A stretch of 31,165 bases of DNA. It comes from a virus (lineage: Duplodnaviria > Heunggongvirae > Uroviricota > Caudoviricetes). Made by a program: the position numbers and the translations under genes. The stretch lies in IMG/VR virus record IMGVR_UViG_2541047931_000001; one strand, 5' to 3'. This document shows positions 2,795 through 31,165 of this stretch, in pieces. Each line of letters starts with the position of its first letter. The stretch's first letter is position 1. The notes beneath the pieces are model-generated. The model was not told the origin of the DNA. It did no database searches and worked only from the letters and a program-made list of their open reading frames with translations.

Positions 2795-3877
2795 TTAGAA
2801 CTGGTAAACCAGACCTACAGCAACGATGTCATCAGTATCAATACCAGCTGTTTTGGTAAACTTACTATCGTCAATTAAGTTGATTTTGTAATCAACAAAA
2901 GTGGACATGTTTTTATTAAAGTAGTAAGTAGCACCGACATCGACATACTTGACTAAGTCTCGGTCACCATGAACACCAAGGTCTTTACCTTTTGACTGAA
3001 GGTAAGCAACAGATGGGCGCAGACCGAAGTCAAACTGATATTGTGCTACTGCTTCAAAGTTTTGTGCTTTGTTTGCAATATGGTTATTACCAAAAACGGT
3101 CATATTCTGAGTTTCAGAATATGTGGTAGCCAGATAGATATTGTTCGCATCATATTTCAGGCCTGCAGCCCATACTTCCGCATTTTTGCCGGAGGCATTG
3201 AATTTGCTCTTACCATAGGCGACCTGACCGTCAGTGCGATCTGATTTAGCATAGGTTGCACCCACGCCGAATCCTTCATACTCATAAGTAGTGGAGAAAC
3301 CGAAACCATCACCATTGGCTTCAGTTACGTCAGTGCGGTCATTTTTACCCTGATACTGAGCAGCAAAGTTCAGGCCATCGACCAGACCAAAGAAGTCGTT
3401 GTTACGATAAGTTGCAACACCAGTAGTGCGACCAGTCATGAACACATCTGTTTGGGTCCAGGTATCACCACCGAATTCTGGCAGGACGTCAGTCCACGCA
3501 CCGATGTCGTATGCTACACCGTAGTTACGGCCGTAATCGATTGAGCCGTAATCACCAAATTTCAGGCCTGCAAATGCAAGACGGGTTTTGTCTTTGGAAG
3601 AACCTTGAGATTCAGCGCGGTTGCCTTTGAATTCATATTCCCACTGACCGAAACCAGTCAGTTGATCGTTGATTTGGGTTTCACCTTTGAAGCCAAGACG
3701 GGCATAAGTAGTATCACCATCATCTGCATCATTAGAGGAGAAGTAGTGCTTAGCATTAACTTTCCCGTACAGATCCAGCTTGTTACTGTCTTTATTATAA
3801 ATTTCAGCTGCCTGAGCAGACATCGCCATCAGTACTGATGCAGCTACAGCAGAAATTGCCACTGTTAATTTTTTCAT
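2795..3877 (-). CDS. nmpC: Outer-membrane general porin, OmpC/OmpF family, NmpC/Lc-type phage moron, 360 aa, apparently intact
   Basis: Signal peptide [23 protein letters not shown], then [16 protein letters not shown] and a C-terminal ...VGLVYQF ending in Phe, as in classical porins. Convergent with Q and located between Q and the lysis genes, as in DLP12/PA-2. Confidence 0.85.
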
Positions 3878-23641: not shown

Positions 23642-26600
23642 ATGGGTAAAGGCAGCAGTAAGGGGCATACCCCGCGCGAAGCGAAGGACAACCTGAAATC
23701 ATCCCAGATGCTGAGCGTGATAGACGCCATCAGTGAAGGGCCGATTGAAGGTCCGGTGGACGGATTAAAAAGTGTGCTGCTGAACAGTACGCCAGTGCTG
23801 GACAGTGAGGGGAATACCAATATCTCCGGCGTCACGGTGGTGTTCCGGGCAGGTGAGCAGGAGCAGACACCGCCGGAGGGGTTTGAATCCTCCGGCTCCG
23901 AGACGGTGCTGGGTACGGAAGTGAAGTACGACACGCCGATTACCCGGACCATCACGTCTGCAAACATCGACCGTCTGCGCTTTACCTTCGGTGTGCAGGC
24001 ACTGGTGGAAACCACCTCAAAGGGTGACAGGAATCCGTCGGAAGTCCGTCTGCTGGTTCAGATACAGCGTAACGGTGGCTGGGTGACGGAAAAAGACATC
24101 ACCATTAAGGGCAAAACCACGTCGCAGTATCTGGCCTCGGTGGTGGTGGATAACCTGCCGCCGCGCCCGTTTAATATCCGGATGCGCAGGATGACGCCGG
24201 ACAGCACCACAGACCAGCTGCAGAACAAAACGCTCTGGTCGTCATACACAGAAATCATCGATGTGAAACAGTGCTACCCGAACACGGCACTGGTCGGCGT
24301 GCAGGTGGACTCGGAGCAGTTCGGCAGCCAGCAGGTGAGCCGTAATTATCATCTTCGCGGGCGCATTCTGCAGGTGCCGTCGAACTATAACCCGCAGACG
24401 CGGCAATACAGCGGTATCTGGGACGGAACGTTTAAGCCAGCATACAGCAATAACATGGCCTGGTGTCTGTGGGATATGCTGACCCATCCACGCTACGGCA
24501 TGGGGAAACGTCTTGGTGCGGCGGATGTGGACAAATGGGCGCTGTATGTCATCGGCCAGTACTGCGACCAGTCAGTGCCGGACGGCTTTGGCGGCACGGA
24601 GCCGCGCATCACCTGTAATGCGTACCTGACCACACAGCGCAAGGCGTGGGATGTGCTCAGTGATTTCTGCTCGGCGATGCGCTGTATGCCGGTATGGAAC
24701 GGGCAGACGCTGACGTTCGTGCAGGACCGGCCGTCGGATAAGGTGTGGACCTATAACCGCAGTAATGTGGTGATGCCGGATGATGGCGCGCCGTTCCGCT
24801 ACAGCTTCAGCGCCCTCAAGGACCGCCATAATGCCGTTGAGGTGAACTGGATTGACCCGGATAACGGCTGGGAGACGGCGACAGAGCTTGTGGAGGACAC
24901 GCAGGCCATTGCCCGTTACGGTCGTAACGTCACGAAGATGGATGCGTTTGGCTGTACCAGTCGGGGGCAGGCGCACCGAGCCGGGCTGTGGCTGATTAAA
25001 ACAGAACTGCTGGAAACGCAGACCGTGGACTTCAGCGTGGGTGCCGAAGGGCTTCGCCATGTACCGGGCGATGTCATTGAAATCTGCGATGATGACTATG
25101 CGGGCATCAGCACCGGTGGGCGCGTGCTGGCGGTGAACAGCCAGACGCGGACACTGACGCTCGACCGTGAAATCACGCTGCCAGCCTCCGGCACCACGCT
25201 GATAAGCCTGGTTGACGGGCAGGGGAGTCCGGTCAGCGTGGAGGTTCAGTCCGTCACCGACGGCGTGAAGGTAAAAGTGAGCCGGGTTCCTGACGGTGTT
25301 GCTGAATACAGCGTGTGGGGGCTTAAGCTGCCGACGCTGCGCCAGCGCCTGTTCCGCTGCGTGAGTATCCGTGAGAACGACGACGGCACGTATGCCATCA
25401 CTGCCGTGCAGCATGTGCCGGAGAAAGAGGCCATCGTGGATAACGGGGCGCACTTTGACGGTGACCAGAGCGGCACGGTGAATGGTGTCACGCCGCCAGC
25501 AGTGCAGCATCTGACCGCCGAAGTCACTGCAGACAGCGGGGAATATCAGGTGCTGGCGCGATGGGACACGCCGAAGGTGGTGAAGGGTGTGAGCTTTATG
25601 CTTCGCCTGACTGTGGCAGCAGACGACGGCAGTGAGCGGCTGGTCAGCACGGCCCGGACGACGGAAACCACATACCGCTTCACGCAACTGGCGCTGGGAA
25701 ACTACAGGCTGACAGTCCGGGCGGCAAATGCCTGGGGGCAGCAGGGCGATCCGGCATCGGTATCGTTCCGGATTGCCGCACCGGCAGCACCGTCGCGGAT
25801 TGAGCTGACGCCGGGCTATTTTCAGATAACCGCAACGCCGCATCTTGCCGTTTATGATCCGACGGTACAGTTTGAGTTCTGGTTCTCGGAAAAGCGGATT
25901 GCGGATATCAGGCAGGTTGAAACCACAGCCCGCTATCTTGGTACGGCGCTGTACTGGATAGCTGCCAGTATCAATATCAAACCGGGCCATGATTATTATT
26001 TTTACGTTCGCAGTGTGAACACCGTCGGCAAATCGGCATTCGTGGAGGCTGTTGGTCAGCCGAGTGATGATGCATCCGGTTATCTGGATTTTTTCAAAGG
26101 CGAGATAGGGAAAACCCATCTGGCTCAGGAGCTGTGGACGCAGATTGATAACGGTCAGCTTGCGCCTGACCTGGCTGAAATCAGGACGTCCATTACGCAT
26201 GTCAGCAATGAAATCACGCAGACCGTCAATAAGAAACTGGAAGACCAGAGTGCGGCAATTCAGCAGATACAGAAGGTTCAGGTTGATACAAATAATAACC
26301 TGAACAGCATGTGGGCTGTGAAGCTGCAGCAGATGCAGGACGGACGCCTTTATATCGCGGGTATTGGTGCCGGTATTGAGAACACCCCTGACGGCATGCA
26401 GAGTCAGGTGCTGCTGGCGGCGGACAGGATTGCGATGGTTAATCCTGCGAATGGCAACACAAAACCGATGTTTGTTGGTCAGGGCGATCAGATATTCATG
26501 AACGACGTGTTCCTGAAACGCCTGACGGCCCCGACCATTACCAGTGGTGGAAATCCACCGGCATTTTCCCTGACACCGGACGGAAAGCTGACCGCTAAAA

Positions 26601-27808: not shown

Positions 27809-27835
27809 TTAGCCAGGTAACACAGTGTTATGACA

Positions 27836-27862
27836 GCCCGCCGGTTCAGGCGGGCTTTTTTG
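27836..27862 (+). terminator. Intrinsic terminator after lom
   Basis: agcccgcc ggttcag gcgggct followed by ttttttg. Confidence 0.55.
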
Positions 27863-27872
27863 TGGAGTGGAT

Positions 27873-30221
27873 ATGGCAGCAGTAAAAATCTCAGGTGTGC
27901 TGAAAGATGGTGCGGGAAAACCAATACAGAACTGCACTATTCAACTGAAGGCAAAGCGTAACAGCACCACGGTACTGGTGAACACGGTGGCCTCTGAAAA
28001 TCCGGATGAAGCCGGGCGTTACAGCATGGATGTCGAGTATGGCCAGTACAGCGTCACCCTGCTGGTTGAAGGTTTTCCGCCTTCACATGCCGGAACCATT
28101 ACCGTCTATGAAGGTTCCAGACCTGGTACGCTGAATGATTTTCTCGGTGCCATGACGGAAGATGATGTCATGCCGGAGGCATTGCGTCGTTTTGAGGCAA
28201 TGGTGGAAGAAGCAGCACGCAACGCTGAAGCCGCCTCTCAGAGCGCAGCGGCAGCAAAGAAATCAGAAACAGCAGCGGCATCATCGAAGAACGCGGCGAA
28301 AACCTCAGAAACGAATGCAGCTAACAGCGCACAGGCGGCAGCGGCCTCGCAGACTGCATCGGCAAACTCCGCGACAGCAGCTAAAAAATCAGAAAACAAC
28401 GCGAAAAATAGCGAGACAGCAGCAAAGACGAGCGAAACCAACGCAAAGTCCAGCCAGGCGGCAGCGAAAACAAGCGAAACGAATGCCAAAACCAGTGAAA
28501 CTGCGGCGAAAAGCAGTCAGGCTGCAGCAGCCGAAAGCGAGAGTGCGGCAGCCGGTTCTGCGACTTCAGCAGCTGGATCAGCAACTGCTGCAGCTAACAG
28601 CCAGAAAGCAGCGAAGACGAGCGAAACTAACGCAAAGTCCAGCCAGACGGCAGCGAAGACCAGCGAAACGAATGCCAAAGCCAGCGAAACTGCGGCGAAA
28701 AACAGTCAGGATGCAGCGGCCCAAAGCGAGAGTGCCGCAGCTGGTTCTGCAAGTGCGGCGGCTTCTTCTGCCACTGCATCAGCCAACAGTCAAAAAGCTG
28801 CAAAAACCAGTGAAACCAACGCAAAGGCGAGCGAGACTGCGGCGGCTAACTCGGCGAAAGCATCCGCTGCAAGCCAGATGGCTGCAAAAGCAAGTGAAGA
28901 CGCAGCCAGAGAGTATGCAAGCCAGGCAGCAGAGCCGTATAAATATGTCTTACAGCCACTGCCTGATGTGTGGATACCGTTTAACGATTCACTGGATATG
29001 CTTGCTGGCTTTTCGCCTGGTTATAAGCAAATAACTGTAGGTGATGATGTTATTAAAATGCCATCCGATAAGGTTGTTAGCTTCAAACGCGCATCAGGTG
29101 CAACATACATTAATAAATCAGGTGTATTAACCGTTGCTGAAGTTGACGAACCGCGATTTGAACGAGAAGGTTTGCTGATTGAAGGACAGAGAACAAACTA
29201 TTTCAGAAATTCAAATACACCAGAAGCATGGAATAACACGGGTAGTGTGTCTGTTGAGTCGTTCGACAGTGATAAGGGGTTTAACTATGGAAGGATAACT
29301 GTTATTAATGAAAATCCGACAGCACAAGGATATCAGGCAATTGCTGTAAACACGAATGATGCTTACACCTGCCCGGCAGGTTCTTATACGACGATATCGT
29401 GTCTGACGAAAAGTGATAATTCCCGGTGTCGTGCAAGGTTCGGAAAAATGTCTGATAATGGTGCGTTTGTTTTTCATTCAGATGCAGCTCTGGATCCTGT
29501 TACGGGAAATGTTGTTCATGGAAATAATGTGACGGTGACGGCAGAAAGAGTCGGTGAATGGTGGTTGTTTACCGCCACTCTTTTTGCAGATGCGGAAATG
29601 ATAATCAGCTCAAGATTTGAAATCCTGGCGATGCCTGGAATCAGTATTATCCCCAATGGCTCTACGTTAGATATTGCGATGCCTCAGGCGGAGATTGGGT
29701 CGTACAGGACGTCATTTATCATTACTGAAGGGGCTCCTGGCACTCGCTCCAGCGACATGGTGACAATACCTGTAAGAAACAATATTCACCGATTACCATT
29801 CAGTGCTCTTGTTGAAGTTAATAAAAACTGGGATATCCCTCCCAGCAAATCACCATTAATCTTTAATGTTAAAGATTATCAGGAAAATGGTCTGTTCACG
29901 CATGGATTCCGTGGTAATAATTTCTCTGATGCCGGTTCTCCTTTTATTTCTATGGGAGGGTGTAATAAATATGTGGCAACAACCCAGAGGAAAATCATTT
30001 CAGGCTTCCGTTGTGGCGCTGATGGAGATGTTCAGGCCGTATGTAATGGTGAATTATCTGTTGCGGCAAAAACAACATGGACTTCAATTGTTCCACGGGC
30101 AGTATTGCGAATTGGAGGGCAGGGCACTAATGGGGAGTATCATCTTTTTGGTCATATCCGTAATCTGCGTATCTGGCATAAAGAATTAACTGATGCGCAA
30201 ATGGGGGAGAGTATTAAATGA
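27873..30221 (+). CDS. stf: Side tail fibre, lambda Stf-like N-terminus, Ala/Ser/Thr-rich fibre repeats, distinct C-terminal domain, about 782 aa
   Basis: MAAVKISGVLKDGAGKPIQNCTIQLKAKRNSTTVLVNTVASENPDEAGRYSMDVEYGQYSV... resembles the lambda Stf N-terminus. GGAG lies 5 nt upstream of the ATG at 27873; the ORF-track start at 27867 is GTG. The C-terminal ~400 aa is non-lambda and ends ...GEYHLFGHIRNLRIWHKELTDAQMGESIK. Confidence 0.8.
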   Translation: MAAVKISGVLKDGAGKPIQNCTIQLKAKRNSTTVLVNTVASENPDEAGRYSMDVEYGQYSVTLLVEGFPPSHAGTITVYEGSRPGTLNDFLGAMTEDDVMPEALRRFEAMVEEAARNAEAASQSAAAAKKSETAAASSKNAAKTSETNAANSAQAAAASQTASANSATAAKKSENNAKNSETAAKTSETNAKSSQAAAKTSETNAKTSETAAKSSQAAAAESESAAAGSATSAAGSATAAANSQKAAKTSETNAKSSQTAAKTSETNAKASETAAKNSQDAAAQSESAAAGSASAAASSATASANSQKAAKTSETNAKASETAAANSAKASAASQMAAKASEDAAREYASQAAEPYKYVLQPLPDVWIPFNDSLDMLAGFSPGYKQITVGDDVIKMPSDKVVSFKRASGATYINKSGVLTVAEVDEPRFEREGLLIEGQRTNYFRNSNTPEAWNNTGSVSVESFDSDKGFNYGRITVINENPTAQGYQAIAVNTNDAYTCPAGSYTTISCLTKSDNSRCRARFGKMSDNGAFVFHSDAALDPVTGNVVHGNNVTVTAERVGEWWLFTATLFADAEMIISSRFEILAMPGISIIPNGSTLDIAMPQAEIGSYRTSFIITEGAPGTRSSDMVTIPVRNNIHRLPFSALVEVNKNWDIPPSKSPLIFNVKDYQENGLFTHGFRGNNFSDAGSPFISMGGCNKYVATTQRKIISGFRCGADGDVQAVCNGELSVAAKTTWTSIVPRAVLRIGGQGTNGEYHLFGHIRNLRIWHKELTDAQMGESIK
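28418..28870 (+). repeat. About 2.4 tandem copies of a 189-bp (63-aa) repeat within stf
   Basis: aagacgagcgaaac(c/t)aacgcaaagtccagccag recurs with a 189-bp period (near 28424, 28613, and diverged at 28802); encodes the ...AAKTSETNAK(S/A)S... fibre repeats. Confidence 0.7.
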
Positions 30222-30499
30222 AAGATTTAACACTCAAATTTGCAGACAGGGCCGACTTTTCGGCCTTTATGGAGAGTATTGGCTATTATGATGACGAGTC
30301 GATGCAGGATGATATTCTTATTGACGTGATAGGTAACGTGTACAAAGAAACCGGAGAACTGACTGAAGATGGCGAACCGGTATGTGTTAAGGAAGACGGA
30401 TATTTTGTAAACGTGCGCATCATTAATGATGCAAAAAAATCGTCAATATTCGATAAATACGCGGTTGTTGTTGAGCATCAACTTCGTGGCTGGATGTGA
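30218..30499 (+). CDS. Hypothetical acidic protein, 93 aa, translationally coupled to stf
   Basis: ATGA overlap with the stf stop; no recognisable motif. Confidence 0.4.
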   Translation: MKDLTLKFADRADFSAFMESIGYYDDESMQDDILIDVIGNVYKETGELTEDGEPVCVKEDGYFVNVRIINDAKKSSIFDKYAVVVEHQLRGWM

Positions 30500-30508
30500 G
30501 GGAGACAA

Positions 30509-30940
30509 ATGGCTACATCGACAGTAATTCCAGGAGATATCACCACGCTAAAGGGAGATGTCAGTAAAACTAAGGAAGATATTTCCTCAATTAACGGAAA
30601 AGTATCAACGCTTCAGACTGATATGACCAGTGCAAAGCAGGATATCAGCACCAGATACACAAAAACTGAAGTTGATAATAAGCTGAAAAACAAACTGGAA
30701 GTGAACGATCTGGAAAGCGGTCGTTATGGTGGAGATTTTTACCCGTTGACTGGCCGTGAAGCGTTTTATTTGTGGGGATTGGGCACGACTACAGCGGCGG
30801 CAAACCTTTATCTTAATCCTGACCCCGCAATTTCGTCTGTGCTGCGGTCAACATCGTCTATCCGCTATAAACATTCAGTAGAGACAATAGATTCAGAGCA
30901 CGCTGATCTCATTTTCAGGATGCGCCCTGTGTGGTACAGG
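30509..30940 (+). pseudogene. Fibre/spike-like ORF truncated by the IS2 insertion
   Basis: GAGGGAG SD; a coiled-coil-like N-terminus, then SSIRYKHSVETIDSEHADLIFRMRPVWYR, which resembles the start of a peptidase-S74-type intramolecular chaperone domain. The frame continues into IS2 terminal sequence at 30942 and stops shortly after. Confidence 0.5.
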
Positions 30941-30941
30941 T

Positions 30942-31165
30942 TGGATTTGCCCCTATATTTCCAGACATCTGTTATCACTTAACCCATTACAAGCCCGCTG
31001 CCGCAGATATTCCCGTGGCGAGCGATAACCCAGCGCACTATGCGGATGCCATTCGTTATAATGCTCGAACGCCTCTGCAAGGTTCTTTGCTGCCGTTAAC
31101 CCGTCTGGTTTGGGCATGATACTGATGTAGTCACGCTTTATCGTTTTCACGAAGCTCTCTGCTAT
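30942..31165 (-). mobile_element. IS2 (IS3 family), right terminal inverted repeat and 3' part, continuing beyond the window
   Basis: TGGATTTGCCCCTATATTTCCAGACATCTGTTATCACTTAACCC is recognised as the IS2 right end in reverse orientation; the transposase C-terminus is encoded on the minus strand. Confidence 0.85.
30953..31165 (-). CDS. insD: IS2 transposase OrfB (InsD), C-terminal part, 5'-truncated by the window edge
   Basis: ...[70 protein letters not shown] is the characteristic IS3-family integrase-core C-terminus. The frame is open to the window end. Confidence 0.85.

Follow-up and report, generated by a model that had tools for sequence, protein, structure and literature searches.

The DNA analysed in this study is a stretch of 31,165 nucleotides (the window), IMG/VR virus record IMGVR_UViG_2541047931_000001. 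It is the late region of a lambda-like prophage of E. coli and encodes RusA, KilA-N, Q, a porin, lysozyme, Rz, Nu1, terminase, head and tail genes, J and Lom. Our subject is the side tail fibre gene stf together with the short module downstream of it. The gene encodes a fibre with a lambda-type collar and shaft, a conserved neck and a non-lambda tip of two beta-sandwich domains; it is followed by a small gene for a 93-residue protein and by a third gene that is cut by an IS2 element. The start codon of stf is the ATG at 27873, with GGAG 5 nt upstream, and the gene has the same extent as the RefSeq coding sequence in intact relatives, including locus L001. The features, in window coordinates, are:

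27873..30221, plus strand: stf, side tail fibre gene, 782 codons and stop (open reading frame list; full-length match to phrog_1419 'tail protein', 1243.6 bits)
27873..28157, plus strand: N-terminal collar (attachment) domain of Stf, residues 1-95 (PF08400; lambda Stf collar, PDB 9e7m and 9mgh)
28173..28928, plus strand: Ala/Ser/Thr-rich shaft of 36 uninterrupted heptads, residues 101-352, predicted trimeric coiled coil (lag-7 autocorrelation; alignment to the lambda orf-401 shaft)
28410..28844, plus strand: 189-bp tandem repeat, 2.3 copies, with a unit of 63 residues or nine heptads (Tandem Repeats Finder score 597, 83% matches, 0 indels; in frame from residue 180)
28929..29081, plus strand: neck, residues 353-403 (PLPDVWIPFNDSLDM... 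from residue 362), inside the measured conserved block of residues 351-440
29082..29777, plus strand: tip domain A, residues 404-635, beta-sandwich homologous to a head spike fibre of the Rhodobacter capsulatus gene transfer agent (RcGTA); hypervariable and presumed to determine specificity (NF048003; Rcc01080 profile match; AlphaFold2)
29778..30218, plus strand: tip domain B, residues 636-782, LamG/concanavalin-A-like beta-sandwich
30218..30499, plus strand: gene for an acidic protein of 93 residues (pI 4.3), presumed fibre accessory or assembly factor, translationally coupled to stf (phrog_1361, unknown function)
30509..30941, plus strand: LtfB-like mini-fibre gene, first 144 of its 229 codons, which encode a docking N-terminus, a coiled coil and the beginning of an S74 chaperone domain (homologue in L001; the similarity of relatives ends at 30941)
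30942..31165, minus strand: end of an IS2 element (IS3 family) inserted in the mini-fibre gene, inside which the window stops (100% match to annotated IS2 copies; terminal sequence read; transposase C-terminus at 30953-31150, minus strand)
27835..27856, plus strand: terminator-like hairpin and T run, located between the lom and stf genes (found by consensus scan; the 8-bp stem contains 7 GC pairs and is followed by TTTTT; sequence also read directly)

The collar domain and the heptad-periodic proximal shaft that characterise lambda-type side tail fibres are both present. PF08400 matches Stf at residues 5-134 (E 1e-66, 223.5 bits against a cutoff of 26.6), and residues 3-95 align with the solved collar domain of Ur-lambda (9e7m; E 7.5e-49, about 88% identity as counted from the alignment). 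This domain attaches the fibre to the tail (PMC12617516). The initial annotation had described only the first 130 or so residues as lambda-like, which falls short of the true extent: the likeness continues to about residue 340, over the coiled-coil shaft, and BLASTP aligns residues 3-329 with lambda orf-401 at 59% identity. Along residues 101-352 the heptads have the form K/A-x-S-x-x-x-A in an unbroken register, and the lag-7 identity autocorrelation of the shaft reaches 0.47 compared with 0.197 +/- 0.021 in shuffles, which is 13 standard deviations higher. The homologous stretch in Ur-lambda (residues 102-393) forms the proximal trimeric coiled coil (PMC12617516).

Within the shaft, the Ala/Ser/Thr-rich repeat of 63 residues, for which about 2.4 copies had been proposed from the sequence, was recovered by Tandem Repeats Finder at nearly the same copy number. 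Its first two copies are 85% identical at the DNA level (15% diverged) and therefore point to an old duplication. Since the unit comprises nine whole heptads, gains or losses of a unit or of a heptad preserve the register. Expansion and contraction by recombination, as suggested before, do occur but are rare. The N-terminus and shaft together are exactly as long as in the window in 68 of 74 related IMG/VR prophage loci; one locus is longer by 63 residues and five are shorter (by 1, 7, 14, 41 and 49 residues). Database proteins with an identical tip have 755, 733 and 718 residues, owing to indels inside the repeat array. Because so many independent loci share one length, an assembly artefact is ruled out, and frequent copy-number variation of the contingency type was not found among these 74 loci. 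The repeats are thus real and able to change by recombination, yet they are not a rapidly varying locus. Another open reading frame overlaps this region in a different frame (290 codons, Arg/Gln-rich, 28162-29034, plus strand); it is a by-product of codon composition and has no gene support.

The C-terminal 430 residues of Stf show no similarity to lambda orf-314, as had been noted for the last 400. The distal part begins with the neck, and the block of residues 351-440 that contains it is 75-100% identical among prophage tip alleles and about 80% identical in the T5-like phage EC100 (counted from the alignment). Tip domain A is matched at residues 435-626 by the NCBIfam family NF048003, 'phage head spike fibre domain', whose model is based on RcGTA, with an E value of 8e-18 and 65.6 bits, well above the cutoff of 36. 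A profile search with the tip detected the RcGTA head spike fibre Rcc01080 (PDB 6tb9) over approximately residues 404-635 (E 6e-14); the Pa193 and E217 baseplate triplex proteins, as well as the tail fibre gp17 (9occ), were matched more weakly. The AlphaFold2 model of domain A has a predicted local distance difference test (pLDDT) score of 85-93. Both tip domains are beta-sandwiches of the concanavalin-A-like class; a jelly roll matching known members of the concanavalin-A-like/LamG superfamily was found, and the fold that the initial annotation had read from the C-terminal strands was borne out by this and by a sub-threshold match to Laminin_G_3. The structural matches of the tip include many carbohydrate-binding modules, and the best ones are non-catalytic binding modules. 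An origin of domains A and B by internal duplication was rejected (hhalign probability 0.3%). The tip profile also seemed to match gpJ (E 3.5e-27), but this homology was discarded, as it is due to one chimeric database protein, P0007, and the tip of the window itself has no match to J. This protein of a public collection (576 residues) fuses gpJ residues 220-524 to the Stf tip described here, and is either an assembly chimera or the product of a deletion.

The tip behaves as an exchangeable cassette. For comparison, 80 IMG/VR loci were chosen by the presence of the 93-residue gene. Across them, the N-terminus, the neck, the small gene and the following genes are 80-100% identical, whereas tip domain A is about 31% identical or not detectable between alleles and domain B 43-46% identical. 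Clustering of the distal tip gave 11 alleles among 72 loci, with pairwise identities of 31-75%; the allele of the window is the third most frequent one (14 loci). The flanks in the same 72 loci are conserved, with 75-100% identity in the neck and 86-100% in the 93-residue protein. At the nucleotide level, identity to another allele is 90-100% up to residue 360, falls to 40-60% over residues 450-780, returns to 93-99% over the small gene and the first 20 or so codons of the third gene, and then drops again. This alternation of high, low and high identity is the signature of a receptor-binding cassette swapped by recombination in conserved flanks. The C-terminal domain had earlier been called replaced; a non-lambda tip is indeed present, but it is no oddity: the cassette has at least 11 common alleles, of which this is one, and is found in several coliphage families. 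Among 5,426 complete E. coli genomes, 111 contain the entire module at about 98% identity, and nearly every one contains parts of it. In the literature, we found no paper that describes this fibre cassette and none that names IdasGreatGrand, an isolated phage carrying the same layout.

No Tfa-type chaperone gene follows stf; as had been proposed, its place is taken by a coupled reading frame of 93 codons. The start of this frame overlaps the stf stop as ATGA, which was read directly, and the overlap is kept in all six loci inspected (the window, L002, L004, L005, L006 and L089). The stf/tfa junction of lambda is of the same kind. The protein itself has no BLASTP similarity to lambda Tfa, does not belong to the Tfa/gpG type, and gave no match in Pfam, NCBIfam or PADLOC and no sequence or fold match in the PDB. 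An exhaustive profile search found its family in only 63 clusters among 1.84 billion representatives; two long matches were set aside, one to a TPR/CHAT protein (spurious) and a weak one to an Mtd_N fibre protein. Homologues with 35-53% identity lie directly after tip-bearing fibre genes in Drexlerviridae (SLUR29), Dhillonvirus, Seuratvirus, T5-like phages (EC100, mar004NP2), rV5-like phages (CarlMeissner) and natural lambda-like isolates. The tip is present in 218 phage-collection records (200 at a coverage of at least 80%) and the small gene in 186, with the same spread over taxa. Some records named as Campylobacter and Listeria phages (e.g. A12a, C11, C14) hold this coliphage cassette at the identity seen in rV5-like coliphages, which suggests that they are mislabelled or mixed.

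Two observations bear on the role of the small protein. It is 86-100% identical across tips that share only 31-75%, and therefore is not a specificity determinant and must act on conserved parts of the fibre. Moreover, Lambda_ev203 and rV5-like phages carry the small gene without the third gene, so that the protein should be attached to the tip and not to the branch. Judged by position, coupling and co-inheritance, it is most likely the dedicated assembly factor of the fibre. We also propose, tentatively and at somewhat less than even odds, that phrog_1361 is the founding member of an undescribed class of tail fibre accessory proteins, chaperones or distal adaptors dedicated to tips that combine a GTA-spike-like with a LamG-like domain. 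The protein is co-inherited with this tip in lambdoid, T1-like, Dhillonvirus, T5-like and rV5-like coliphages and sits where lambda has Tfa.

The third gene was absent from the initial annotation. In intact relatives it encodes 229 residues with the conserved N-terminus MATSTVIPxDIxTLK, a coiled coil and an S74 domain. In L001 the latter is recognised by PF13884 at residues 116-172 (27.4 bits against a cutoff of 22), and SSIRYK represents the Ser-Lys site. In the window IS2 interrupts the gene at 30942 and leaves only 29 residues of the S74 domain. None of the 5,426 complete E. coli genomes searched contains this junction between IS2 and the third gene. The second fibres of the T5-like phages EC100 and mar004NP2 (mar004NP2_00162) have the same N-terminal motif; in the T5-like phages with this tip, the second fibre has 576-589 residues, this motif and an S74 end. 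In mar004NP2, the second-fibre gene was named an ltfB orthologue, and the homologous main fibre is a virion protein by mass spectrometry (PMC6563131). By analogy with LtfA and LtfB of DT57C (PMC4728585), the third gene product probably docks on the main fibre as a second subunit. An allele of 346 residues (L028 4292-5332; also L048, L050 and others) has the same docking motif and S74 end (SDRDLKDNI) and an extra globular domain of about 200 residues; the second fibre is therefore itself a variable cassette.

After the module, intact relatives carry a hydrophobic reading frame of 97 codons (L001 9358-9790), whose closest homologues, at 90-99% identity, are in lambda-like phages; phages of Aeromonas and Halomonas gave weak partial matches. 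It is followed in L001 by a remnant of 40 codons annotated as tail fibre assembly protein, a relic of an earlier tfa. Neither a gp37-like distal tip nor a tfa gene was found for this fibre, and this remnant is all that L001 retains of tfa downstream. In Lambda_ev203, a natural lambda-like isolate, the manganese/iron transporter operon sitABCD lies directly after the fibre module (L089 4177-7273).

Elsewhere in the window, the prophage carries a general porin gene (2795-3877, minus strand; Porin_1 in Pfam, E 2e-151), flanked by the Q antiterminator gene (2207-2605) and the lysis genes; we take its product to resemble the Lc/NmpC-type porins of lambdoid prophages. An open reading frame of 542 codons antisense to J (24572-26200, minus strand) is a by-product of codon composition without gene support. 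By analogy with lambda, stf would be expressed through Q-antiterminated late transcription.

Taken as a whole, the module is best explained as a mosaic side tail fibre of a lambda-like E. coli prophage, with a tip binding a variable surface polysaccharide and a 93-residue accessory factor; we give this reading a probability of roughly 0.65. The collar, i.e. the N-terminal 95 residues, fixes the fibre trimer to the tail. The tip would bind a variable polysaccharide of the E. coli surface (O-antigen, capsule or lipopolysaccharide core) as a reversible first receptor, and a swap of alleles by recombination in the conserved flanks may retarget the phage. The translationally coupled protein in the tfa slot of lambda would serve as a dedicated accessory factor, most likely an assembly chaperone on conserved fibre parts and not on the variable tip. 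The product of the third gene would be a short second fibre subunit, LtfB-like and equipped with an S74 intramolecular chaperone of its own, that branches off the main fibre and is presumably inactivated here by IS2. A sugar-binding role of the tip is suggested by fold and homology; the binding of Rcc01080 to the capsule of R. capsulatus (PMC10218006) is its only functional anchor.

Several points weigh against this explanation. Concanavalin-A/LamG folds bind proteins as well, and Laminin_G_3 (PF13385) stays below the gathering score in the window (last 57 residues, E 0.018, 15.7 bits against 27.6), two homologues reaching 26.3-27.0 bits, just under the cutoff. The neck and the trimeric state were beyond modelling; as a monomer, the neck has a pLDDT below 50. 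The phage JakobBernoulli, which binds O16, was considered as an experimental anchor and gave no support, as its fibre is unrelated. Finally, the divergence of the small protein tracks the phage lineage and not the tip allele, a pattern as compatible with a structural adaptor as with a chaperone of conserved parts.

The best-placed alternative, although we hold it to be unlikely, is that the 93-residue protein is not an assembly chaperone but a structural adaptor. Placed at the distal fibre, it would dock the LtfB-like second fibre and give a branched fibre as in DT57C. In favour of this, one conserved nucleotide island, flanked by two variable cassettes, comprises the small gene and the first 20 or so codons of the third gene. 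The third gene also shares its N-terminal docking motif with the T5-like second fibres, including the ltfB orthologue of mar004NP2. On the other side, the small gene occurs in Lambda_ev203 and rV5-like phages, which lack any LtfB-like gene. Furthermore, the protein was undetected in mar004NP2 virions, in a survey so shallow that LtfB was missed too (PMC6563131).

Somewhat less probable still is that the tip binds an outer-membrane protein such as a porin, in the way that the fibre tips of lambda and T4 bind OmpC, and not a polysaccharide. The closest sequence homologue of tested function, Rcc01080, binds capsule, carbohydrate-binding modules are frequent among the structural matches, and lateral fibres of T5-like and T1-like phages at this position are held to target O-antigen (PMC8594841).

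That the module in this genome is a decaying, non-functional remnant appears improbable. The truncation of the third gene by IS2 speaks for such decay, and the end of the window inside IS2 leaves the remainder of this prophage end unseen. On the other hand, the stf and 93-residue frames are unbroken and share 98-100% identity with their counterparts in many other prophages, the upstream late genes look intact, phages without the third gene exist, and IdasGreatGrand shares the four-gene layout at about 92% identity over the matched 68%. An enzymatic tip, i.e. a glucanase or lyase of the concanavalin-A-like class that degrades surface polysaccharide, is very improbable, given that the best structural matches are non-catalytic, that family searches by sequence matched no hydrolase or lyase family and that domain A is too variable between alleles (about 31% identity) for an evident conserved active site.

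With a polysaccharide-binding mosaic fibre as the preferred explanation, the object is a common and already catalogued kind of side tail fibre, of which the small partner protein is the sole unexplained component. The locus offers a clean natural example of how coliphage fibres are retargeted, in which collar and coiled coil are fixed, the neck and the small partner gene are conserved, and the lectin-like tip of two domains is exchangeable. The neck and the small gene are natural splice points and could inform how lambda fibre chimeras are built for delivery vectors. In practical terms the value is modest; chimeric fibre design for this purpose is already in use (PMC11338833). A tip of this type moved without the 93-residue protein might fail to assemble.

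Several known systems were compared with the module. Among them, gp46 of Pa193 and gp45 of E217 (baseplate triplex) and gp17 (PDB 9occ) are baseplate wedge subunits holding fibres and not distal receptor-binding tips. With Rcc01080 of RcGTA (NF048003; PDB 6tb9), homology covers tip domain A from FKRASxATY...PRFE...GLLIEGxRTN at its start to PQVExGxxxSSxIxTxxxxxTRxxD at its end. A beta-rich, lectin-like structure is predicted for that protein, which binds capsular polysaccharide (PMC10218006). However, it is a fibre of 325 residues whose N-terminus attaches to a pentameric spike base of the head, and it lacks the lambda collar, the coiled-coil shaft and the small partner gene.

Lambda (Ur-lambda) Stf/Tfa resembles the module in the genome position after J and lom, in the collar, in the homologous heptad coiled-coil shaft and in the downstream partner gene, which overlaps the stop codon in the same way. 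Lambda differs in its distal part, where a T4 gp37-like coiled coil carries an OmpC-binding tip that needs the Tfa protein of 194 residues; here, the distal 430 residues form a neck and two beta-sandwich domains, and the partner is an unrelated protein of 93 residues.

The T5-like phages DT57C and DT571/2 encode in LtfA and LtfB a main fibre followed by a second fibre gene with a short N-terminus thought to dock and a C-terminal S74 chaperone. LtfA of DT57C ends in an S74 domain of its own and has a different receptor-binding region, and the consulted part of the description mentions no small gene between ltfA and ltfB. The second fibre of our module differs from DT57C LtfB in being only 229 residues long, without a globular binding domain, and interrupted. 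The T5-like phages EC100 and mar004NP2 possess a main fibre with this very tip and the small gene, followed by an LtfB-type fibre.

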